Positions 4,234-53,660 are shown, numbered from the whole stretch's first letter. The stretch is DNA of 63,081 bases, filler included, from Deltaproteobacteria bacterium (GCA_030698575.1; 14 parts of 14 records of this genome joined end to end with filler, not necessarily neighbours in it); one strand, 5' to 3'. The notes: generated by a model from the sequence alone, not told the origin. Program-made: numbers and translations.

Positions 4234-4333
4234 NNNNNNNNNNNNNNNNNNNNNNNNNNNNNNNNNNNNNNNNNNNNTTAATTAATTAANNNNNNNNNNN
4301 NNNNNNNNNNNNNNNNNNNNNNNNNNNNNNNNN
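4234..4333. other. Assembly gap with artificial linker (first of 13)
   Basis: N44-TTAATTAATTAA-N44. The same linker is at 7739-7838, 18012-18111, 21887-21986, 26571-26670, 30329-30428, 34486-34585, 37765-37864, 40727-40826, 46430-46529, 49299-49398, 53221-53320 and 58451-58550. Confidence 0.98.
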
Positions 4334-7738: not shown

Positions 7739-7840
7739 NNNNNNNNNNNNNNNNNNNNNNNNNNNNNNNNNNNNNNNNNNNNTTAATTAATTAANNNNNN
7801 NNNNNNNNNNNNNNNNNNNNNNNNNNNNNNNNNNNNNNCA

Positions 7841-10714
7841 ATGCATTCGACGCCTTCCCATCTGGGGACGGACCCCGCTGCCCTGATGGAGCTGGTCGAC
7901 GCGCTCTCAGTCCGAACCATCGATACCCGAGTCGAGACACCCTTCGCCGGGCCCGGTCACGTACTGGAGGCGCTGACGCAGCTCGAGTTCTACCGGCTTG
8001 GCGGCGCGGCACGGCGCGAAGGTCAGGCGCCGACAACCATCCCGGCGTCCGTTCTCGCCGGGCTGGCGACGGGCGAGGCTCCCCTCGGCTTCGTTGCGGC
8101 CGGCGACGGCCAGGAAGTTGTGCTCGCTGTGGGCAGCACACGCTCCCGTGCGGCCTCCCTCGCGGCCACCGTCCACGCGGCCATGGGCGGGCCGCCACCG
8201 TACAGCCTGTCTCTCGGGCACGCGCAGATAGACCTCCCCGTCTTCGGCTGTCTCACCGGTGTCCCCTCCACTGCGGTACCACCGGATTCAGCGCTCGACT
8301 TATTTCTCGACGGCCTTCGGGGCGTTCCGTTCCTCTATCTGGTCTACGCAACACCAGAGCCCGTGTCTGCGGTCCGCCGAGACTTCGACCGCATGCGCGA
8401 GGCCGTAAAGGAGGTTGATCGCACGCATCTTCTCCTGCCACAACAGTCGAACGTGGATCGGGGCGCGCTGCGCGCCCGCGAGTTACTCGATGCGTGGTTG
8501 CGCCGCTTGGAATCCGGCCTCAGCGGCGGCCTCTGGCGCGTTTCCGCCCTGCTCGGCGCTGATAGCCGTGATCACGTTCGGCATGGACTCGAGCTTTTGT
8601 CCGGTCAGCTCCGCAATGATCAAGAACACGCTTTGGCGCCCGTTCGGGGCTACCTGTGCGGCCACGACCGGAACGGCGCGGACGTGCATGCGAACTTGCT
8701 CTCACCAGCAGAGCTCGCGGCGCTCTGCCCTCTTCCTCACCGTGATCGGGTCGGCTTTGCGCTGCGTCAGGAGACCCGATTCGACGTAGACCACCGGAGC
8801 CCAGAGGGCGCGCGGATCGGACAGATCGTCGATGCCGAGGTGCCCACCGGCCGCTGGTACGCCGTCGACGACGCGGCGCTTTGCCGCCACACCCTTGTTG
8901 CGGGGCACACCGGCTCCGGCAAGAGCACGACCGTGAAGGGCCTCCTGCTTGACCTGGCCGGCAGGGGCCTACCGTTCCTCGTGCTCGAGCCGGCGAAGGC
9001 CGAGTACCGAGCGCTCGCGACAAGCATGCCCGGACTCTGCGTCTTCCCGGTGGGTGCGCCGCCGCGTGCCGGACAGATGCCCTTCCTCCTCAACCCGTTC
9101 GCTTTCCCTGTGGGCTTCCCGCTGCACACGCACATCGACTTCTTTACGCAGGCGTTCGTCGCCTCATTCGGACTCCCTCCGCCGACACCGTACTTGCTCC
9201 AAGGTGCCATCTACCGCACTTACGAGGCTCGGGGGTGGGACCTGGTCACCGGCAGGCATCCCAACGGTCACGACCAGATGTCCTTCCCCACGCTATCGGA
9301 TCTCCTTGAGCAGATCGATCCCGTCATGGACGAAGCCGACTACCACGGCGAGATCTCCGCGAACCTGCGCGCCGCTCTTCGCACCCGCATCGGAAATTTG
9401 TGCCTCGGACCGAAGGGTCTCGCGCTCAACACCCGCCAGGGGCTACCGGACGAGATGTTATTTGGAGGACCGGTCGTCCTCGAACTCAGACACCTCGGCT
9501 CTGATGAGGAGAAGGCCCTCCTGATGGGGCTGGTCATCACGCGCCTCTACGAGCTACGCGAAACCAGCCGACCTGAAACAAGTGACCGGCTCCGGCACCT
9601 CCTCGTCGTCGAGGAGGCACACCGCCTTCTCAAGCGCACAGCGGAGCGCTCCTCGGAGGAAAGCAACATGGCGCACCAGGCCATCCAGACCTTTGCCAAC
9701 CTCCTCGCGGAGCTCAGGGCATACGGGCAGGGCGTGGTCCTCGTCGAGCAGCTTCCCTCAAAACTTGAACCGGATATGGTTAAGCACGCCGGCACCAAGG
9801 TCATTCACCGCCTGACGCCCCGCGACGACCGAGACGTGGTCGGAGACGCCATGGTCCTCACGGAGGCGCAGAAGCGAGCGCTCGCTGCCCTGCCCACTGG
9901 TGAGGCGGTCGTATACGGGGAAGGAATGGATGGCGCCGTGCGCGTCAGGGTACCGAAGCGCGACGAGCGCGGCCCGACGACCGCGGATCTCGCCGCTCGC
10001 CCGTGGCGCCGGATCGAGGAAGCGCAGGCCGATCGGCTACGTGCTGTGCTCGAACGATCGCAACTCGCCGGCTTGCTCGCGCTGAAGGAAATCCGAGACG
10101 CAGCGGAGCGAAGCTGGTTCGCCGCGTTTGCCGGGTTGTCGGTCGAAGAGCACGTTGCCTATCTGAAGGCTGAAACGGACCGCCTCCTCGATCCGGAGAC
10201 CAAGGCAAGGGACACTGCCGTCGCGTTCGCCCTCGAGGACGCGCTCCTGCGCCGTGCGCTCTTTCACGGTTGGAGCGAAGCCGCATTCGAGGCCGTAAGG
10301 AGCACCCTGCGCAGCAATGGGCCAGCGGGGGCTGCGCGTTGTCCGCAGGCGCTCGCCAGCCATCGCCGAGTCTGCTCCCGCAGGTGTTCCTTCTGCTACG
10401 AGGGGGCGCAGCTTGCGGCGGATACGCTGTTCCGCGAGGACGTGACGGCCGTGGCGGAGATGGACAGCGATTTGTGGCAGGACGCGCTGTTGCAGGCGGT
10501 CGCCGACTGTGCACGCCGGCGCCTCGGCTGGGAAAAGTCCCTGCCCGATGTGATCATCGCGTGTGGGATCGGGCAGGTAATGACGCGTGCCGGTGTCTCG
10601 CGCCGCGCGGTGGATAAGGTTCTCAACCACGTGCTTGTTGAGCGGGATGACGCCCCCAGTCCTGGCACGCCGCTTGCAGTCTCGCCGGTTACTCGGGGGG
10701 CACGGACCGAATGA
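7841..10714 (+). CDS. HerA/FtsK-superfamily (DUF87-type) P-loop ATPase, 957 aa; may be 5' truncated at the contig edge
   Basis: RHTLVAGHTGSGKS (Walker A), LVLEPAKAEY, LLVVEEAHRL (Walker B), ELRAYGQGVVLVEQLPSKL (Arg finger/Q motif). C-terminal extension has CSRRCSFC. Confidence 0.88.
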   Translation: MHSTPSHLGTDPAALMELVDALSVRTIDTRVETPFAGPGHVLEALTQLEFYRLGGAARREGQAPTTIPASVLAGLATGEAPLGFVAAGDGQEVVLAVGSTRSRAASLAATVHAAMGGPPPYSLSLGHAQIDLPVFGCLTGVPSTAVPPDSALDLFLDGLRGVPFLYLVYATPEPVSAVRRDFDRMREAVKEVDRTHLLLPQQSNVDRGALRARELLDAWLRRLESGLSGGLWRVSALLGADSRDHVRHGLELLSGQLRNDQEHALAPVRGYLCGHDRNGADVHANLLSPAELAALCPLPHRDRVGFALRQETRFDVDHRSPEGARIGQIVDAEVPTGRWYAVDDAALCRHTLVAGHTGSGKSTTVKGLLLDLAGRGLPFLVLEPAKAEYRALATSMPGLCVFPVGAPPRAGQMPFLLNPFAFPVGFPLHTHIDFFTQAFVASFGLPPPTPYLLQGAIYRTYEARGWDLVTGRHPNGHDQMSFPTLSDLLEQIDPVMDEADYHGEISANLRAALRTRIGNLCLGPKGLALNTRQGLPDEMLFGGPVVLELRHLGSDEEKALLMGLVITRLYELRETSRPETSDRLRHLLVVEEAHRLLKRTAERSSEESNMAHQAIQTFANLLAELRAYGQGVVLVEQLPSKLEPDMVKHAGTKVIHRLTPRDDRDVVGDAMVLTEAQKRALAALPTGEAVVYGEGMDGAVRVRVPKRDERGPTTADLAARPWRRIEEAQADRLRAVLERSQLAGLLALKEIRDAAERSWFAAFAGLSVEEHVAYLKAETDRLLDPETKARDTAVAFALEDALLRRALFHGWSEAAFEAVRSTLRSNGPAGAARCPQALASHRRVCSRRCSFCYEGAQLAADTLFREDVTAVAEMDSDLWQDALLQAVADCARRRLGWEKSLPDVIIACGIGQVMTRAGVSRRAVDKVLNHVLVERDDAPSPGTPLAVSPVTRGARTE
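10662..10678 (+). promoter_or_regulatory. Sigma54 (-24/-12) promoter
   Basis: CTGGCACG-CCGC-TTGCA matches the YTGGCACG-N4-TTGCW consensus exactly. It sits about 33 bp upstream of the ATG at 10711, inside the 3' end of the ATPase gene. Confidence 0.6.
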
Positions 10715-10803
10715 GCAGCGAGGATCTCGATTCCGTCATCGAACACGAGACCTATGACATGATGAAAAATCGCGTGCAGGGAAATCGGAGGCGCACCGAA
10801 TGA
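10711..10803 (+). CDS. 30-aa micro-ORF (MSSEDLDSVIEHETYDMMKNRVQGNRRRTE)
   Basis: ATGA overlap with the ATPase stop and with the next ORF start; G-rich RBS upstream. Confidence 0.45.
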   Translation: MSSEDLDSVIEHETYDMMKNRVQGNRRRTE

Positions 10804-11117
10804 CGAGGTCCACAAAGGCGCTTGAGCCGTTCGCCGTCGAGCCAGTATCGGTCGAACCAAGCGGCCCCGAGCGACGTCCCGCGGCCGCCATCGAGACTCC
10901 CAAGCTCAACGAAGGGACCCGCATGGGGCCACTCACAATCATAAGGACGGACGCTAGTGTTGGACAACGGCTGCGGGCCGAACCATGGGCACTATATGTT
11001 GTGTCTTTCCACAAAATGGATCATATGCGATGTCTGTTTCACGGCGTCTGCAATCCAGTCGTCCTATTTCCTAACACACCGCCTGCCGTGCAGGAAACCA
11101 ATGAGCAAACGCATTAG
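10800..11117 (+). CDS. Hypothetical protein, 105 aa
   Basis: GGAGG RBS and ATGA coupling to the upstream micro-ORF; no recognised motif. Confidence 0.4.
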   Translation: MTRSTKALEPFAVEPVSVEPSGPERRPAAAIETPKLNEGTRMGPLTIIRTDASVGQRLRAEPWALYVVSFHKMDHMRCLFHGVCNPVVLFPNTPPAVQETNEQTH

Positions 11118-11178
11118 TGTGGGTCCTTCGGATTATCGATCCCCTGACCGCCAGCTCCGAAACGAGGAGGTAGAATAA
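11101..11178 (+). CDS. 25-aa micro-ORF (MSKRISVGPSDYRSPDRQLRNEEVE)
   Basis: AGGA RBS; TAATG overlap with the next gene; N-terminus resembles that of the 11712 ORF. Confidence 0.4.
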   Translation: MSKRISVGPSDYRSPDRQLRNEEVE

Positions 11179-11507
11179 TGAGCGACCGGACAGACGAAAC
11201 CCCCGACGGAAAGGAATGGCGGCGCAATTATGTCCGCACCGAGGTGGACCGCCTTCTCCGCGAGCATCGCGAACACCCTGAGCGCGGGTCGCGCCCTGAG
11301 GATCGGGTCGCGCGGCTCGAGCGGATCGTAACTCGCGACGCGGCACGCCATCTGCCGGACTTCAATCCCGAGCGAACTCGCGAGCTGGAAGATTTCGAGA
11401 TCCGTTCGAACCCAGAAGGCTACCTGGCGCGGCACGCCGGCGAGGGGCTGGACCCCGCGACCGAGCGCGAGGTGCGTAGGGCTCTGGCGAAGCGACGGAG
11501 CGGGTAG
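11178..11507 (+). CDS. Hypothetical charged helical protein, 109 aa
   Basis: Strong GAGGAGG RBS, clean ORF, coupled to its neighbours. Confidence 0.7.
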   Translation: MSDRTDETPDGKEWRRNYVRTEVDRLLREHREHPERGSRPEDRVARLERIVTRDAARHLPDFNPERTRELEDFEIRSNPEGYLARHAGEGLDPATEREVRRALAKRRSG

Positions 11508-11711
11508 TGCCCGGAGTTGACACAATGTCCCTGGAGGACGAAAGTAGTCTGTTCCCAGAATTGACGATGCCGGCACCGCATCCGTTAATCGCGAACAGAT
11601 GTGTCCATCGTGCTCAACAGGACGTCATGCTATACCGCGTGAGTTCGACAGAGGATGCTAGCGGGCTTTGCGATCACCCAGCCAAGCGCCGTAGGGCCTT
11701 GGAGGAACCCC

Positions 11712-12797
11712 ATGAGTAAAGTATCGATCGGGCCGCCTGGAATTAAAGTAAGCCCCGAGGCCGCAGTCAACATCAAGGTTGGCCAGGAACTGATGACGGC
11801 CAGGGAGGAATGCGAGGGTGAGAGCGACCAGCATGTTGATCGCGATCCCTTGGAACCTCCTCAACTCGAAGACAAGGGAGACAGCACGGAGTTTGTCGAA
11901 GATGAGCCGCCAGGAAGCAGCTTCGAGCTGCCTTGGAAGGGAAAGTTGCCGCTAATGCACCAGATTCCCAAGCGCCTGCGTCCCCCCTTGCGCTACCGGA
12001 TCGACGGCGACCTGACCGTCCATCCCCTCTACCGAGAGCGATCAAAGAGCGAGGATCTCGAGCACGCCGTTGCGGAGGCGATCGCGGTGCACCTCTGGCG
12101 GACAGGCGTCCGCCTCGTGCAAATAGGAGACTGGTGCCGCATCCCTTCTATAGGCAGCGACGACGAACTCGCCGCCTTGATCCCGGGGACACACAGAAGA
12201 CAGTTGACCGCAAGCCGGATCCACGCCGTAGGCAACGTGCTCAAGGACTTCGCGATCGAGTTGCCAAGTCGCGATGTTGTAACGCCGCAGGCCCTCATCG
12301 ATATCGCCAAACGCCCCCAGGTCCGTTACCAGATCGACGGGAGCTTCGTGGTTCACAAGAAGCGTCGAAGGAACGTAAAGCGCGAGGCCCTTGAACAAGC
12401 CGTCGCCCAAGCCATCGCGCGGCATCTCCAGAACACGGGGTATACCCCGAACGACCCTGGAGACTGGCGTCAGATCCCGGGAATCGGGGCAGATTTCGAT
12501 CTCGCGGTGTTGGTGCCCGAGAGCCACAGGGCCGCGCTCGTCCAGGAATTCGCTGACGTGGTGAAGGCATTCGCCGTCGAATTGCCGAACGGCGATAAAG
12601 TGACCCCTGGGGATCTCATCGAACCAAACAGCATAATAAAGCGCACCACTCGGGGCGCTGCACTCAGGCTTGCGGCACAGCGCCCTGAGGCAATGCCGAG
12701 CGGCGAAACCTGGTCCTCCGCCGACTGGGACGCCTTTGAAGATACGCAGCGGAGGAAGGAGCCCAAGGACGGGAGGCAGGGAGGACTCGAGCCGTGA
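11712..12797 (+). CDS. Hypothetical protein with acidic N-terminal region and a tandemly duplicated ~105-aa domain; possible divergent sigma54-like factor
   Basis: GGAGG RBS before ATG 11712. Repeat units RYRIDG..LEHAVAEAIA.HL..GDW..IP.IG...FAIELP (~11988-12302) and RYQIDG..LEQAVAQAIA.HL..GDW..IP.IG...FAVELP (~12321-12623). Its stop overlaps the GTG of the RNA polymerase gene. Confidence 0.75.
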   Translation: MSKVSIGPPGIKVSPEAAVNIKVGQELMTAREECEGESDQHVDRDPLEPPQLEDKGDSTEFVEDEPPGSSFELPWKGKLPLMHQIPKRLRPPLRYRIDGDLTVHPLYRERSKSEDLEHAVAEAIAVHLWRTGVRLVQIGDWCRIPSIGSDDELAALIPGTHRRQLTASRIHAVGNVLKDFAIELPSRDVVTPQALIDIAKRPQVRYQIDGSFVVHKKRRRNVKREALEQAVAQAIARHLQNTGYTPNDPGDWRQIPGIGADFDLAVLVPESHRAALVQEFADVVKAFAVELPNGDKVTPGDLIEPNSIIKRTTRGAALRLAAQRPEAMPSGETWSSADWDAFEDTQRRKEPKDGRQGGLEP

Positions 12798-15700
12798 TTA
12801 ACGCCGAACTTTACCGGAAGTGGGCCGAGCAACGAGGGCTCGCAGGCCTTGAGTTCCCGGTGAAAAGACGCGGCAAGAAAGTGTTGGCCCGGCTTCCGCT
12901 TCCGGATGACCGCGGAATCTTCTGGCGCGGGAGCATACCCTGCCTGCTGCCGTATCTCCGCGCATACTGGAAGGCCGATTCGAGTGACAGTGACGGCGTG
13001 CCCGAGATCCCATCGTGGCAACCAGATAGCTGGATCAAGCTTACAAGTTCGACCGCCGCCGAGTTGCGACGAATCGCGGACCGGAGCGAAACATGGCCTC
13101 TCGCGTGGCAGTCGAGGCAGCTGAAGAACATCCACCAAGCGCGCAAGCTCGCCCAATCCATGGACGGTGGCCTCGGATACCTGCGATTCTTGCGCGCCGA
13201 CCAGCTTCTCGAATGCATCCTGGGCATGCTCGGGTGCTCTCCCGGGGACGAAACCTTCCTCGCATCGGTCCATAAATACCTCGGGGCCTGGCTCGTGCCG
13301 CTTGATGAAGCCATTCGGGATCGCATCGAAATCCTGGATCGGCGTGTCGAGACGGTACGTATGTATGTTCGAAAGGGGGTACTTAAGTGGACCCGCAGGC
13401 CCCGTTGGTTCCCCGACGAGCTACGCGTCTCGATCATCGATGGTATCGATCCAGTTCATACGCCTGAGAACGCGCGGGCCGGGCTTACCCGTTACCTATG
13501 CGAGGGATGGGGGATTGACGACCATGGCCGGCTCGTGTCTGGCGAAATGGCGACTGGTTGGGGCCCGTCTTCGGCTCTCATCCCACACCGCCACCACGAT
13601 GCACCGCGTCGCCTCATGCTCGGCGCGTCGCTCCAGTCCCGCGGTGTGCCGCTCATCGATCCCGATCGACCCAGCGAACCTGACAAGCTGGGGGGGTGGC
13701 TTCCCGAGGGAAGAAACCTGCGGGCCTCCTTCAGGATGCTCGGCGGCTGGACGCATGAAGACGCTGTCGTGCTGTCGGAGTCCGCGGCTAACAAGCTCTG
13801 CTCTCGGACTGTGCGGCAGATCCGCGTGCTCGTGCCGTCAGTTGCGTCGCGTGTGGAGATCGCGGAGCCTTCGGACGCGCCAATCCCCATCAAGCACCAG
13901 CAGGCCCTCGCACGGGCGTACATCGATGCGTACGCTCTCGGGCTGCGCCGTCACGATGCGAAGGATCTCGGCGCCGATGACGGGTGGATCGAGGTCGCTC
14001 TTCCAGCAGCCTCCGCCCCCTTCGACGGCCAACTCTGCAAACTGACACGACAAGCGCTTCGTACGCCAAAATGGCGCGAGATGATAACGTTCGAGATCGA
14101 ACGCAGTGCCCCAGTGCGCGTCGGCGACAAACTGTCTACGCGACACGGCATCAAGGGTGTCGTCAGCCGCATACTTCCGGATGGGGAGATGCCGCCTGCG
14201 GATGAGCACTCCGCCGAGATCGTACTCTCCCCGCTGAGTATCGTCCGCCGCGGCGCCATGGGGCAGCTTCGAGAAGCCGTGTCGCCTGGTGCCACGGACC
14301 TCCCGCGTGCAGGGACGATCTTCGTCATGCGGCAGCCTCAAGACGCAGACTTGCCCGAGCGCTGCCGCGTCCGGGGTCCCGAGCGAATGGGGAACGAGCA
14401 CCTCCACCACGGCCAGCGATACGGTGAGATGGAGTTTTGGGGGCTGATGGCGCACGGCGCCGCGGCGATCGCGAAGGAGCTGCTCTCGGTCGAGCGCTCG
14501 ACTGCGCCATGGTTGGCATGGGAGGAGAGGATCAAGCCCGGTGGACATCACAAGCTTGCGACGAGAGCGCTGAACCGCTTCCTCGCGGTCGCCGGCGTCC
14601 AGATTCAAGGCGGCTGCTTCGTAGCAAATAGGGAACCTCCCGGTGTCTTCAAGATCGAGCCGAAGTGGAAATTGCGTGGCGACCCTCGCGAGAAGCTGGA
14701 GGACGCGAAATACTTCTATGAGAATGGCGGGCTTGGGGAGCTACCCCTCGGAAGGAGGGTGAGGGCTGCCCTCGACGAGGACTGGCCGATTCCACCCGAC
14801 TTTGAAGAGAGGAGCGTGACGCAAGCCCTGGGCGGGAAGGTCAGGATTGTCCTCGAGAAGCGAATGAACGGTGGAGACGAGCGCTTGATCCCTCGCTTTA
14901 TCGAGCTCGACCAAATCTACATTCTGCCGCCGTGGCTCCGCCCCTCGAGTCCGTCGGAACGTCACGAACTCACGCAAGCGTACTGGCGGCTCATGACTAA
15001 ACTCGCTTGGCCATGGTCGAAACAAGACGAGATCGATCAAGCGGTTGGCAAGTGCATCCGGCTGATGTTCCAGGACAGGCAGGGAGCCGGGGGGTTCCTG
15101 CGTCGAGAGATCCTCGGCAGAAGACTCACACGTTCGGCACGAGCGGTCATCGTGCCCCGGCCAGACCTGCGCATCGACCAGGTGGCAATCCCGCCCTGGA
15201 TGGCGGATCAACTGTTCGAGGGACTCCCTGACACCAACCGCAGCCTCGTACTCGTGAACCGTAACCCGACCCTCCACCGCCAAGGATTACTCGCTCTGCG
15301 CCCTGTTGTAGACCCTTCGAATGAGCCCCATGTGTTCGGACTATCGTTAGGAATCTTGCGTGCGCTCAACGCCGACTTCGACGGTGACCAGGCCAGCGTT
15401 GTCGCGCTAGAAACCGAGGCGGCGCTCGCTGAAGCGGAGCGCTTGCTTCCTGGCGCGGCCGAACTCCGAAGCGACCCGTTCCGATCGGGACAGCCTGCGT
15501 TCCCCTTCGCAGGTGAACTGGCCGACCCCTCCAACGAGAAAGCCCTGGCCCGCAATGCGTCATTGGCACAAGAGGACTGGTGCGAGAAAAATCGTGAACT
15601 ACAGAACGCGCGACTGCAAAGCCTCGGCGACGGCTGGCAACTGCCCTTGATTAAAGATGCAATTGCGAAGAACATCGAGCTATGGCAAGGAATGAACGAC

Positions 15701-16171
15701 GACGACTGGCGCACGTTCGCGGCGCAGGAGATGGAGAAGGTCTTCCGCGGAGTCCGGCGCAAAGGCCAGCTTGGCGGCGTCCTCCGACGCGAGGTATATC
15801 GACGGTCCTACACCGACGACGACTCCTTCGGGCGCTCGGTCCAGGCTCTTCAGGCTGTCACCGAGCGGATGACGCAAACGGCTCTCTCGGTGAAGTCCGG
15901 GGCAGGTCCTACTACCTTCAACGCTCGGCGGTACTTCGACGATCCGGCGGGCGCCAAGGCGATGCTCGCCATCCTCTCCGAAAGAATGGAGGAAAGCCTC
16001 GACGCAGACCTACTCGCGGACTCCCTCGGCGCCCCCAATGACCCGAATGGGTTGCTCGCCTGGATGGCAAAGCCCAACCTTCACACATTACTCGAGCTTG
16101 CTGTTGGGAACCTCCACGACCCGGCTGCCCAGCCCGAAGCGGATCCTCGGATGGCATGGTTCCTGGACTGA
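12794..16171 (+). CDS. Single-chain, miniaturised two-barrel RNA polymerase (RpoB-like core fused to RpoC-like core), 1125 aa
   Basis: Beta motifs in order: IDPVHTPENARAGL, SALIPHRHHDAPRRLMLGASLQ, GRNL..GWTHEDAVVLSES, GDKLSTRHGIKGVVS, SPLSIVRRGAMGQ, GQRYGEMEFWGL. Beta' motifs follow: ILPPWLRP, ILGRRLTRSARAVIVP, LVNRNPTLHRQG, NADFDGDQ (15368-15391), and a trigger-loop-like QAVTERMTQTALSVK. Confidence 0.92.
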   Translation: MINAELYRKWAEQRGLAGLEFPVKRRGKKVLARLPLPDDRGIFWRGSIPCLLPYLRAYWKADSSDSDGVPEIPSWQPDSWIKLTSSTAAELRRIADRSETWPLAWQSRQLKNIHQARKLAQSMDGGLGYLRFLRADQLLECILGMLGCSPGDETFLASVHKYLGAWLVPLDEAIRDRIEILDRRVETVRMYVRKGVLKWTRRPRWFPDELRVSIIDGIDPVHTPENARAGLTRYLCEGWGIDDHGRLVSGEMATGWGPSSALIPHRHHDAPRRLMLGASLQSRGVPLIDPDRPSEPDKLGGWLPEGRNLRASFRMLGGWTHEDAVVLSESAANKLCSRTVRQIRVLVPSVASRVEIAEPSDAPIPIKHQQALARAYIDAYALGLRRHDAKDLGADDGWIEVALPAASAPFDGQLCKLTRQALRTPKWREMITFEIERSAPVRVGDKLSTRHGIKGVVSRILPDGEMPPADEHSAEIVLSPLSIVRRGAMGQLREAVSPGATDLPRAGTIFVMRQPQDADLPERCRVRGPERMGNEHLHHGQRYGEMEFWGLMAHGAAAIAKELLSVERSTAPWLAWEERIKPGGHHKLATRALNRFLAVAGVQIQGGCFVANREPPGVFKIEPKWKLRGDPREKLEDAKYFYENGGLGELPLGRRVRAALDEDWPIPPDFEERSVTQALGGKVRIVLEKRMNGGDERLIPRFIELDQIYILPPWLRPSSPSERHELTQAYWRLMTKLAWPWSKQDEIDQAVGKCIRLMFQDRQGAGGFLRREILGRRLTRSARAVIVPRPDLRIDQVAIPPWMADQLFEGLPDTNRSLVLVNRNPTLHRQGLLALRPVVDPSNEPHVFGLSLGILRALNADFDGDQASVVALETEAALAEAERLLPGAAELRSDPFRSGQPAFPFAGELADPSNEKALARNASLAQEDWCEKNRELQNARLQSLGDGWQLPLIKDAIAKNIELWQGMNDDDWRTFAAQEMEKVFRGVRRKGQLGGVLRREVYRRSYTDDDSFGRSVQALQAVTERMTQTALSVKSGAGPTTFNARRYFDDPAGAKAMLAILSERMEESLDADLLADSLGAPNDPNGLLAWMAKPNLHTLLELAVGNLHDPAAQPEADPRMAWFLD

Positions 16172-16533
16172 TCTGGCAGGCGACACGGCGCAAGGCCGAT
16201 TGGAGCCGTCATATTCGGTGTCTGCGCGAGACTGGCTCCACCTTTCGACCCGCTTCTCGAGCACTCTCATGTGGATGGCGAATTGATACTCAGGCTGATA
16301 TCGGGCCTCATATAGCTGTGCGTGGTGAATTCTGAATCACGCTGCCATCGGGAGCTTGTGCGGCCTTCGGCAATGGGCTTCGAGCGGCTAGGTTTCAGAA
16401 GCCGGGCGATCGTGGTCAGCGCGGTGCCCCAGGACTGTAAACAGGGACTTCATGGTGCGGAAGCCTTCGGTAATCGCGATGGTGAATCTGTCACAGGTCC
16501 TCACACAGGCCGGCACACCGATCCTAGATCCAC

Positions 16534-17532
16534 ATGGTTTTTCGAATGAATGGTACACATTCAAGTCGCCGCCGAAACCCTTCGGGGGCTAGCCAGTCAA
16601 GGTCCTCACGCCTCCGGGAGGCCCCGGCCGGTCATGCGTACCGGCTGGTACTCGCAATCTGGGACCGCATGCGCCGGAATGCTCGCGTCCGACCGGAATG
16701 GCGACGCGTAGTGGAGAGGGCCGTTCACGCAATGGAAGCCGCCTCGGGATTAGCGGCCGAGAAACTCCTCACAGCCCCTGATCGTCCGTGCGCAGCCCTT
16801 GCGGACCAATTCGACTTGGGAGCGATCCTCGAGTTTTCGGGTGCCGTCCCTATCTGGGAATCGGCAGTACGTACGGGGCGGCGGCCAGCGCAGTCGATCC
16901 CACAAAACCAGAAGCTCTTCCATGGCACCACCGATGCGGCGACCCACTACTTCAACGGCATCCGCAAACTCGCCCTCCGCAATGCCCCGCAACTCTTCGA
17001 GGCGCTCAGTGCCCGTCGGGTACAGTTTGGACGAGTTCTTGACCTTGGAGCGGGAACCGGCGACTACGCTGCCGCGATGATCGATCGTGGCATTGCGAGG
17101 GATGTTCTTTGTGTAGACCAACAGTACGTTATCGACCTGCCGGCCAGGCAGCGACGGAGCAGTCTACGCTGGCAGGCAGCAGATCTTCGGCGACTGTCTC
17201 TACCGAGCGAGGAGCCGTTCGATGCGGTATGGATCAGCAACGTGCTTCATCACTACTCCGCGCGGACTGACGCGGAGATCCTCCGCCGTTGCGCGCGGAA
17301 TCTAGCATCGGACGGCAGCTTGCTCATCCACGAGTACCTCCTTGACGGGGCAGGCACGCAAGCTCTCGCAGCCGGGGTGCTTGGGCTGCACTTTGCTCTC
17401 ACAACAGGTGGTGGCCGCTGTTATTCCCTCCAAGAATTGCTGGATCTCTGCGCCCGAGCCACCCCGTTCAATTCGATTGAGTTCTCACTGACCTTACCGA
17501 TTTCGACCGTGGTTATCCTCCGTCGGGGCTGA
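16534..17532 (+). CDS. Class I SAM-dependent methyltransferase (O-methyltransferase-like); start uncertain
   Basis: RVLDLGAGTG, VLCVD, FDAVWISNVLHHYS..IL..L..DGSLLIHEY and GGRCYS. Confidence 0.8.
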   Translation: MVFRMNGTHSSRRRNPSGASQSRSSRLREAPAGHAYRLVLAIWDRMRRNARVRPEWRRVVERAVHAMEAASGLAAEKLLTAPDRPCAALADQFDLGAILEFSGAVPIWESAVRTGRRPAQSIPQNQKLFHGTTDAATHYFNGIRKLALRNAPQLFEALSARRVQFGRVLDLGAGTGDYAAAMIDRGIARDVLCVDQQYVIDLPARQRRSSLRWQAADLRRLSLPSEEPFDAVWISNVLHHYSARTDAEILRRCARNLASDGSLLIHEYLLDGAGTQALAAGVLGLHFALTTGGGRCYSLQELLDLCARATPFNSIEFSLTLPISTVVILRRG

Positions 17533-17546
17533 ACTACCGACGTCCG

Positions 17547-18011
17547 CTACTTCCTCCACTTCCTCGCTCGCCTCCCTCTTGCTCGCAGATGCTGCAACGC
17601 CTTCGCCGCCCCGTCCTCTGAGTCGAATTTAACGATTGCAAAGGGTTGCTTACCGTCAGGCTGAATGATGGAGATCTTTGTTGCCCTCAGCGGAAGCCAC
17701 CTCTGGATCGTCTTCTTGTCTACGTTCGCCGCACCACCGAGATCGAGAAACAGTTCCCCTGGTCGTTTGACGGTTGCCGGTCCTCCCGCGCCGGAACCCT
17801 CAACCATGACGCGCTGGGCCGCTACGACCTCCCCGCAAGCATCCACGAAAGTCGAACCCGTCGATTCGAGGACCGCTCCCGCGACCGTAGCGGCGCATCG
17901 CTGCCGAAGCGGCGACTGCACCCTGGGCTGTTGCGCTGCAATTAAGCCGGATGCAGCGCGAATGATTTCACCTCGCAGAGTCCAGCGCGCAAGTTGTAGG
18001 CTTTGCTCCAG
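17547..18011 (-). CDS. C-terminal part of a protein ending in an RRM-like domain; 5' truncated
   Basis: Frame is open to the contig end (LEQSLQLARW...). ELFLDLGG (RNP2-like) and PFAIVKFDSEDGAAKALQHL (RNP1-like). Confidence 0.55.
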   Translation of the reverse strand: MEQSLQLARWTLRGEIIRAASGLIAAQQPRVQSPLRQRCAATVAGAVLESTGSTFVDACGEVVAAQRVMVEGSGAGGPATVKRPGELFLDLGGAANVDKKTIQRWLPLRATKISIIQPDGKQPFAIVKFDSEDGAAKALQHLRARGRRARKWRK

Positions 18012-18124
18012 NNNNNNNNNNNNNNNNNNNNNNNNNNNNNNNNNNNNNNNNNNNNTTAATTAATTAANNNNNNNNNNNNNNNNNNNNNNNNNNNNNNNNN
18101 NNNNNNNNNNNTCCATGAAATCGA

Positions 18125-53220: not shown

Positions 53221-53660
53221 NNNNNNNNNNNNNNNNNNNNNNNNNNNNNNNNNNNNNNNNNNNNTTAATTAATTAANNNNNNNNNNNNNNNNNNNNNNNN
53301 NNNNNNNNNNNNNNNNNNNNTGGGGTCTGTGGGCAACGCCGCACGGCGCTGCACGGTTGCGTACCACTCAAGAAGCGTCCCACCGCCCCGGCGTCGAGCA
53401 AGCTCGACGCCATCGAAGAACATCACCGTGGTTCGGGAGCAGTTCCTCCCAGCCCACACCCGACCCGGCTCCCTCTTTGTGTTCTGAGATGAGAGCCGTG
53501 CGCGCCACCACACTTCCACACGACTTCCCTGCGCGACACAGGACGATACTCTCATCTCGAAGCTCGCTGCTCTGGAGTGTCTGTAAGGCAAGAGCGGTGC
53601 CACAGACGCAGCCGAGCCGACGTGTGCGGGTAACCACTTACTGTTGCAGTGTTTCGCGGG

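Follow-up and report, generated by a model that had tools for sequence, protein, structure and literature searches.

The gene at positions 11712-12797 of the analyzed stretch of deltaproteobacterial DNA (assembly GCA_030698575.1; the whole 63,081-nt stretch is hereafter called the window) encodes a 361-aa protein, the factor, which is coupled to the gene of a single-chain RNA polymerase (mini-RNAP). With a probability of roughly 0.6, we regard the factor as a dedicated sigma-54-like initiation (promoter-specificity) subunit of the mini-RNAP, built on a much reduced sigma-54 plan. This reading is carried by a constant gene adjacency, a conserved protein family, a predicted fold whose best structural counterpart is sigma-54, and a predicted complex of factor and polymerase.

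The two genes overlap, as a preliminary description of the locus had stated: the TGA stop codon of the factor (12795-12797) and the GTG start codon of the mini-RNAP (12794-12796) form a common GTGA. Judged from its sequence, the downstream 1125-aa open reading frame (ORF) is a real two-barrel RNA polymerase. It matches the Pfam families RNA_pol_Rpb2_6 (5e-14), Rpb2_7, and Rpb1_2 (2e-18) and contains the beta/beta' double-psi barrels, the NADFDGD metal site, and the beta lysine motif that define this enzyme class; the motifs NADFDGD and GDKLSTRHGIKG are invariant in 36 homologs. Matches to the NCBIfam rpoB and rpoC models are partial and far below their cut-offs. The mini-RNAP family includes 46 proteins at E of 1e-150 or better, and its members, where named at all, are annotated as "hypothetical protein" or by a generic term for a polymerase or a domain. 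Fused beta::beta' proteins of another, distant family (P0122-P0130, ~1010-1060 aa, with Rpb2 domain 3) were observed in metagenome-assembled genomes (MAGs) of Armatimonadetes and Roseiflexaceae.

Pattern scans yielded 3 genome loci (Acidobacteria MAGs) and 12 metagenome loci; metagenome loci L014-L018 proved to be false positives encoding GGDEF/GAF/HD proteins and were dropped before adjacency was counted. In all loci with a significant factor homolog (11/11, counting the window), a mini-RNAP homolog is encoded by the gene that follows directly on that strand. The same gene order is kept in a twelfth locus (L040), and the 4-nt overlap is common among the module loci. The factor/RNAP pair is rare, being present in 3/401 sampled genomes of the Acidobacteria phylum, with the same count (3/401) for the class, and it was not found in the two phylum-mates of the window genome (the searched collection holds three genomes for the source phylum). 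In two loci, L007 (7119-9742) and L012 (1031-1812), the mini-RNAP frame is split into two overlapping ORFs, which reflects either a frameshift or an assembly error.

The start codon of the factor (ATG 11712) is preceded by a GGAGGA Shine-Dalgarno sequence at a spacing of 5 nt; an alternative start at the upstream ATG 11655 would give a protein of 380 aa. The parts named in the preliminary description were all recovered, namely a short N-terminal segment (residues 17-29, AAVNIKVGQELMT), an acidic linker (residues 30-76, with 16 D/E vs 4 K/R among its 47 residues), and two repeats of ~105 aa. The repeats (residues 91-197 and 202-304) share 51/107 identities (48%; BLASTP E 7e-29), so that the similarity of their amino acid sequences is far beyond chance. 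At the DNA level, no similarity between the copies remains detectable by blastn, and therefore the duplication appears to be old.

Searched exhaustively with phmmer, 1.84 billion cluster representatives yielded 71 relatives of the factor at E <= 1e-3, including 60 at E <= 1e-10. No usable family match for the factor was obtained in Pfam, NCBIfam, PADLOC, or PHROGs, and the weak rows for Beta_protein and DacZ_P (E 0.02-0.06) were dismissed as its identity; Pfam searches with 56 family members gave single scattered matches only. The family members share a common plan. A variable N-terminus, often rich in Q/K/R and predicted to be helical, is followed by an acidic linker with the motif EPPExEDxGDS and by the conserved stretch FDxEW...LPxxxxLPRRxRPxVRFxID, and then by a domain of ~107 aa and a tail of the form KRATRAAALR...W...DW..F...Q, in which the basic motif KR(A/T)TR(A/G)AALR is conserved. 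Domain hidden Markov models (HMMs) detect the linker-domain-tail arrangement in 58/74 proteins. Two full domain copies are present in five of the 74 (the window protein, P0014, P0030, P0041, and P0067), and three copies in one (P0002). In the domain tree, repeat 1 of the window protein is placed beside single-domain homologs, P0003 being the nearest, and repeat 2 is more divergent. Since the multi-copy proteins are scattered across this tree, the domain seems to have been duplicated repeatedly and independently, and the tandem repeat is thus a lineage-specific elaboration rather than a family-defining trait. No viral relative was found by Foldseek against viral models or by a pattern scan of IMG/VR, the ESM Atlas contained no usable match, and PLSDB plasmids gave canonical rpoB/rpoC only. 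A literature search of full-text sources, which lack most subscription journals, returned nothing on either the factor family or the mini-RNAP family.

Likeness of the factor to sigma-54 at the level of fold is supported by two template-free AlphaFold2 models, one of the single-domain homolog P0003 and the other of the window factor (mean confidence, pLDDT, 84.2 and 83.5, respectively; mostly >90 in the domain). In a structural alignment, independent of Foldseek, against 48,161 PDB representatives, sigma-54 chains occupy ranks 1-3 for both models and stand 3-4 Z units above the next match; the remaining weak matches are helix-turn-helix (HTH) or winged-helix DNA binders. After re-alignment of the Foldseek candidates, the top 10/180 and the top 15/223 are all sigma-54, beyond which Z drops to 3.1 and 3.0. 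Residues 91-197 of the factor model superimpose on the extra-long helix and HTH (ELH-HTH) domain of Aquifex sigmaN (residues 204-332) over 89 residues with a root-mean-square deviation of 2.9 A and 16% identity, i.e., the predicted repeat domain has the fold of the -12 recognition domain of sigma-54. The whole-chain alignment is collinear (factor 1-357 to sigma-54 5-477, with factor 91-348 aligning to 272-467). In such collinear alignments, the N-terminal helix of the factor models takes the same position as the sigma-54 region I helix, and the C-terminal tail takes the position of the RpoN domain. Foldseek itself found no match of the factor in the PDB at E <= 0.001, and sigma-54 accounts for six of the 49 weak rows shown. 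The earlier suggestion that each repeat resembles the DNA-binding part of sigma-54 accordingly stands with respect to the fold, where sigma-54 ranks first for both models.

Searched with the family HMM, all PDB sequences gave 13 matches at E <= 10, and 12/13 are sigma-54 proteins matched N-terminus to N-terminus (E 0.97-5.4, in a compositionally biased region). Convergence is an alternative: the mini-RNAP could have a DNA-binding initiation factor unrelated to sigma-54 whose winged-helix or HTH domain acquired a similar helix arrangement independently, comparable to the extended winged helices of the TFIIE/RPC62 type. We consider this unlikely, because sigma-54 surpasses every other HTH protein by the above difference in Z in two models, N-terminal helix, domain, and tail all align collinearly, the sequences reached by the HMM are nearly all sigma-54 N-termini, and ATPases of the sigma-54-activator type occur in the genomic context described below.

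Binding of the factor to the mini-RNAP is supported by a predicted complex of the homologous pair from locus L002, which was modeled as factor 1-253 with RNAP 353-1099, using an alignment for each. The median interface score (ipSAE) was 0.75, compared to 0.00 for the best of three controls; a value of 0.75 is reached by 58/80 solved complexes and by 2/110 mismatched pairs, which are rough counts given that custom alignments were used. The model runs shared at least 76% of contacts, and the pLDDT of the partners was at least 76. The interface with the polymerase envisaged in the preliminary description is thus borne out, as a prediction, for a homologous pair with a truncated RNAP.

The interface residues of the L002 factor (20-42, 53-66, 69-80, and 84-97) correspond to the N-terminal helix (20-31), an acidic stretch with GDS (56-66), FDREW (74-78), and LPRRARP (84-97), which are the most conserved motifs of the family outside the domain. 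Read directly from the window protein, their counterparts are residues ~17-28, LEDKGDS (52-58), FELPW (71-75), and LPLMHQIPKRLRP (79-91). The contacted elements of the L002 polymerase include the helix following PPWLRP (663-686), the NRNPT loop (767-769), and the DFDGD loop (806-810); the first of these presumably represents the beta' clamp helices, where sigma factors usually dock. The GDS stretch of the linker touches the NPT and DFDGD loops in the model. The ELH-HTH-like domain and the tail have almost no contact with RNAP, which fits parts that are free for DNA binding. According to a review on sigma-54 (PMC7057263), region I together with the ELH contacts beta', and the acidic region II.3 is located in the RNA exit channel; the predicted arrangement of the factor on its polymerase is analogous.

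Under the proposed sigma-54-like mode of action, the N-terminal third of the factor (the amphipathic helix, the EPPxLEDxGDS linker, and the FxxxW/LPxxxxLPRRxRP anchor) would dock on the polymerase, with the acidic linker reaching into the active-site cleft as region II of sigma-54 does. The ELH-HTH-like domain, which occurs twice in the window protein, and the basic tail would be left free to read DNA, and the additional domain copy would probably lengthen or change the recognized DNA site. An ATPase of the sigma-54-activator, or bacterial enhancer-binding protein (bEBP), type, which recurs with the module, may control initiation. As for the promoter-specificity factor postulated in the preliminary description, its fold likeness and polymerase binding are backed by the models; the specificity itself, as well as DNA binding and ATPase dependence, we infer.

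The same placement of the linker could belong to a polymerase-bound regulator, or safety catch, that plugs the cleft and keeps the polymerase of a mobile element inactive until the plug is displaced by an ATPase or a different signal; the HTH-like domains would then have some other purpose or tether the factor to DNA non-specifically. The strong acidity of the linker, the modeled position of its GDS stretch next to the RNAP loops NPT and DFDGD, and the recurrence nearby of several kinds of ATPases (bEBP-like, classical AAA, and HerA-like) would all suit such a role. We nevertheless judge it rather improbable, as a pure inhibitor would need neither one to three conserved DNA-binding-type domains nor a conserved basic tail. 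Sigma-70 region 3.2 and TFIIB likewise enter the RNAP cleft. Entry of region II into the cleft is described for sigma-54, a true initiation factor, in the above review (PMC7057263).

The neighborhoods of the module vary, containing ParB and Replic_Relax genes in L013, transposases in L002 and L040, and HerA-type ATPase and methyltransferase genes in the window; since they differ so widely, a location on accessory or mobile DNA fits the module. In L013 (84-4235, 8365-10662), the ParB and replication-relaxation genes are followed by the factor/RNAP pair and a TPR protein, and the contig looks like a plasmid or an integrative element. A protein co-transcribed with the polymerase gene but working independently of the polymerase, e.g., a DNA binder for plasmid partition or replication, would agree with these upstream L013 genes and with the HTH-like domain, yet it is very improbable in view of the adjacency to RNAP kept in every counted locus despite the very different neighborhoods, the overlap of the factor stop with the RNAP start, and a complex model that passes its controls.

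Orthologous Sigma54_activat AAA+ genes are located ~3-7 kb downstream of the RNAP gene in three loci: L004 (E 3.5e-53, L1-loop GAFDGA), L009 (E 2e-29, GAFTGA), and L040 (E 2.4e-36, GGFSGA). The ATPase gene is co-directional with the module in L040 and not in L004 and L009. Four loci extend 5 kb or more downstream of RNAP, and such a gene is present in three of them; the exception is L002, which has a transposase in this region. The ATPase genes of L004 and L009 each have a partner gene for an uncharacterized protein of about 900-1000 aa. A corresponding pair, an activator-type ATPase followed by an uncharacterized protein of ~960 aa, is encoded in the window genome on the open-ended contig G000:C587 (L047, 1-4607) and matches the L009 proteins at 8e-48 and 7e-45; this contig cannot be joined to the window contig, as their ends do not overlap. 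The pair also occurs in G023. With the query used, the ~900-aa protein was found neither in the two relatives that lack the module nor in G022 and G124. In addition, a classical AAA (PF00004) ATPase gene was observed 3-5 kb upstream of the factor gene, on the opposite strand, in L003, L004, L007, and L009; in three of these four loci it has a DegT-type aminotransferase gene beside it, and several uncharacterized genes recur there too.

A perfect match to the sigma-54-type -24/-12 promoter pattern TGGCAC-N5-TTGC (10663-10677) lies within the 3'-terminal part of the HerA-like gene of the window. It precedes the factor ATG by 1035 nt and is directed toward the factor and RNAP genes. In L010, a perfect site precedes the factor ATG by 58 nt on the same strand. 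The 11 module loci (128 kb, both strands) contain 2 perfect sites, both upstream of the factor gene and on its strand, whereas ~0.24 would be expected at equal base use. The complete 63-kb window also contains 2 such sites, and the second (53588-53602, minus strand), on another of its contigs, is probably an ordinary host sigma-54 promoter. A near-consensus site with one mismatch (TGGCACGGCTCTAGC) was observed in a divergent intergenic region of L004 (8222-8236, minus strand), where it points at an operon of an uncharacterized gene, a VWA gene, and an AAA gene. The host genome encodes its own canonical sigma-54 (1.4e-134) and has at least 17 activator-type matches. The combination of ATPases and sites fits an ATPase acting on the factor and a host sigma-54 that drives the operon together with a bEBP equally well.

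Several results weigh against the assignment of the factor as a sigma-54-like subunit. In hhalign comparisons of the family with 15 canonical sigma-54 proteins, taken from the host and other genomes, the probability was 4.8% (0.2-3.6% for separate parts). No Sigma54_AID, CBD, or DBD domain was detected at E <= 1 in the window protein or in the 56 members. The likeness of the N-terminal segment to sigma-54 region I, proposed earlier from visual comparison, did not reach significance, with a best E of 0.97 and an hhalign probability of 3.6% for the N-terminal parts. The core-binding domain (Sigma54_CBD, about 130 aa) is absent from the factor, which has no Pfam match there and only ~23 residues between the acidic linker and the first domain. 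The RpoN box is absent from its translation, as had already been noted: there is no Sigma54_DBD match and no motif of the ARRTVAKYR type, and the corresponding conserved stretch reads KRTTRGAALR. The complex model represents a homologous pair rather than the window proteins, with the RNAP cut to 747 residues, and the predicted acidic segment in the active site suits an inhibitor as well as an initiation factor. Finally, one-mismatch -24/-12 sites are not enriched in the window (3 found vs 3.18 expected), and both the neighboring ATPases and the -24/-12 sites may just reflect control of the operon by host sigma-54. Because the sequence tests are negative and neither the core-binding domain nor the RpoN box is present, the factor falls outside the sigma-54 family as defined, and its resemblance to sigma-54 lies in architecture and fold.

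A wider reading is tentatively offered, in which the locus would be part of a self-contained enhancer-dependent transcription system residing on accessory DNA. Such a system would consist of the mini-RNAP, a stripped-down sigma-54 relative without the core-binding domain and with a variable number of ELH-HTH domains, and its own bEBP-type AAA+ activator with a ~900-aa partner, the factor possibly reading -24/-12-like promoters, its own included. On this wider reading, the factor would be the first sigma-54 relative outside the canonical family, either a relic of the origin of sigma-54 or a product of radical reduction.

The window is assembled from 14 or more contigs with paired 44-N runs between them (4234-4333, 7739-7838, 18012-18111, and ten more pairs), i.e., it is not one genome stretch, and the true context of the factor gene is confined to positions 7839-18011, a contig of 10,173 bp (G000:C550). 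The source assembly has a size of 4.1 Mb in 653 contigs and is 91.6% complete. Public DNA runs containing the stretch are groundwater metagenomes, and no public RNA run is listed as containing it. The plus strand of the contig encodes, in this order, a HerA/FtsK-type ATPase, small ORFs, the factor, the mini-RNAP, and an S-adenosylmethionine (SAM)-dependent methyltransferase (Table 1). Neither the HerA/FtsK-type ATPase nor the methyltransferase recurs in the other module loci. With their matches to HerA/mad8 and mad2, the two flanks of the window module recall a methylation-associated defence system; among the module neighbors, PADLOC reported generic RtcR/PspF-type AAA+ matches only and no known defence system. 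The 109-aa ORF upstream of the factor gene has no family match and no counterpart in the other module loci.

Table 1. Features of the factor locus, in window positions
Feature	Positions	Strand	Basis
HerA/FtsK-type ATPase, 957 aa	7841..10714	+	Pfam FtsK_SpoIIIE/DUF87; PADLOC HerA 4.5e-22, mad8 8e-19
Perfect sigma-54-type -24/-12 promoter-like element, CCTGGCACGCCGCTTGCAG	10663..10677	+	TGGCAC-N5-TTGC match
109-aa ORF between the promoter-like site and the factor gene	11178..11507	+	Strong GAGGAGG ribosome-binding site
Factor gene, 361 aa plus stop; probable sigma-54-like partner of the mini-RNAP	11712..12797	+	ORF, Shine-Dalgarno sequence, family, model, structural match
Factor N-terminal segment, aa 1-29, region-I-like position	11712..11798	+	Starts predicted helix aa 15-38 (model)
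Acidic linker, aa 30-76, with conserved EPPxLEDxGDS and F-x-x-x-W motifs	11799..11939	+	Composition, family conservation
Conserved anchor motif, aa 77-99, LPLMHQIPKRLRPPLRYRIDG	11940..12008	+	Family consensus LPxxxxLPRRxRPxVRFxID
Repeat 1, aa 91-197, ELH-HTH-like domain	11982..12302	+	Repeat alignment, domain HMM, tree, sigma-54 ELH-HTH fold match
Repeat 2, aa 202-304, more divergent second domain copy	12315..12623	+	
C-terminal tail, aa 305-361, KRTTRGAALRLAA...W..DWD.FE.TQRRK	12624..12794	+	Tail HMM conserved in most members
Fused beta::beta' two-barrel mini-RNAP, 1125 aa	12794..16171	+	Pfam Rpb2_6, Rpb2_7, Rpb1_2; NADFDGD
SAM-dependent methyltransferase, 332 aa	16534..17532	+	Pfam Methyltransf_25/11; PADLOC mad2 2.9e-7

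The factor shares with sigma-54, its best structural match in the PDB, the order of its parts (N-terminal helix, acidic linker of low conservation, domain of a long helix plus HTH, and C-terminal tail of a DNA-binding type), the predicted binding to its polymerase with an acidic segment in the cleft, and the genomic linkage to Sigma54_activat AAA+ ATPases, with TGGCAC-N5-TTGC sites in two loci. Unlike sigma-54, the single-domain factor is about half the size (240-300 aa), has neither a core-binding domain nor an RpoN box (KRATRAAALR instead), shows no detectable sequence homology, and can have its ELH-HTH-like domain duplicated or triplicated; its partner is a one-chain mini-RNAP rather than the host core, and the host keeps a canonical sigma-54. 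Among known polymerases, YonO of the Bacillus prophage SPbeta, a single-polypeptide RNAP related to beta/beta' (PMC5467207), and Orf6 of the Kluyveromyces lactis plasmid pGKL2, a single-chain two-barrel RNAP (PMC2919709), are likewise one polypeptide encoded on accessory or mobile DNA. The mini-RNAP differs from both in its clear Pfam-level similarity to Rpb2_6 and Rpb1_2 and in its obligatorily linked sigma-54-like partner. We know of no sigma-like partner of YonO. The proposed role of the factor as a small dedicated promoter-recognition subunit of a non-canonical RNAP has a parallel in the non-virion RNAPs of phages AR9 and phiKZ, in which a small dedicated subunit provides promoter recognition (PMC5449584, PMC4666361). 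In contrast to the factor, those subunits are unrelated proteins that serve split beta/beta' subunits in jumbo phages.

To our knowledge, no relatives of sigma-54 are known, and its origin awaits explanation. If the factor family indeed follows the sigma-54 plan and serves a minimal one-chain polymerase, it would provide a comparison point for the evolution of enhancer-dependent initiation. It would further show which parts of sigma-54, namely the core-binding domain and the RpoN box, are dispensable, and the two genes would constitute an orthogonal transcription system of about 1,500 residues. A function would thereby be assigned to about 70 clusters of "hypothetical" proteins as well as to an undescribed family of bacterial mini-RNAPs.
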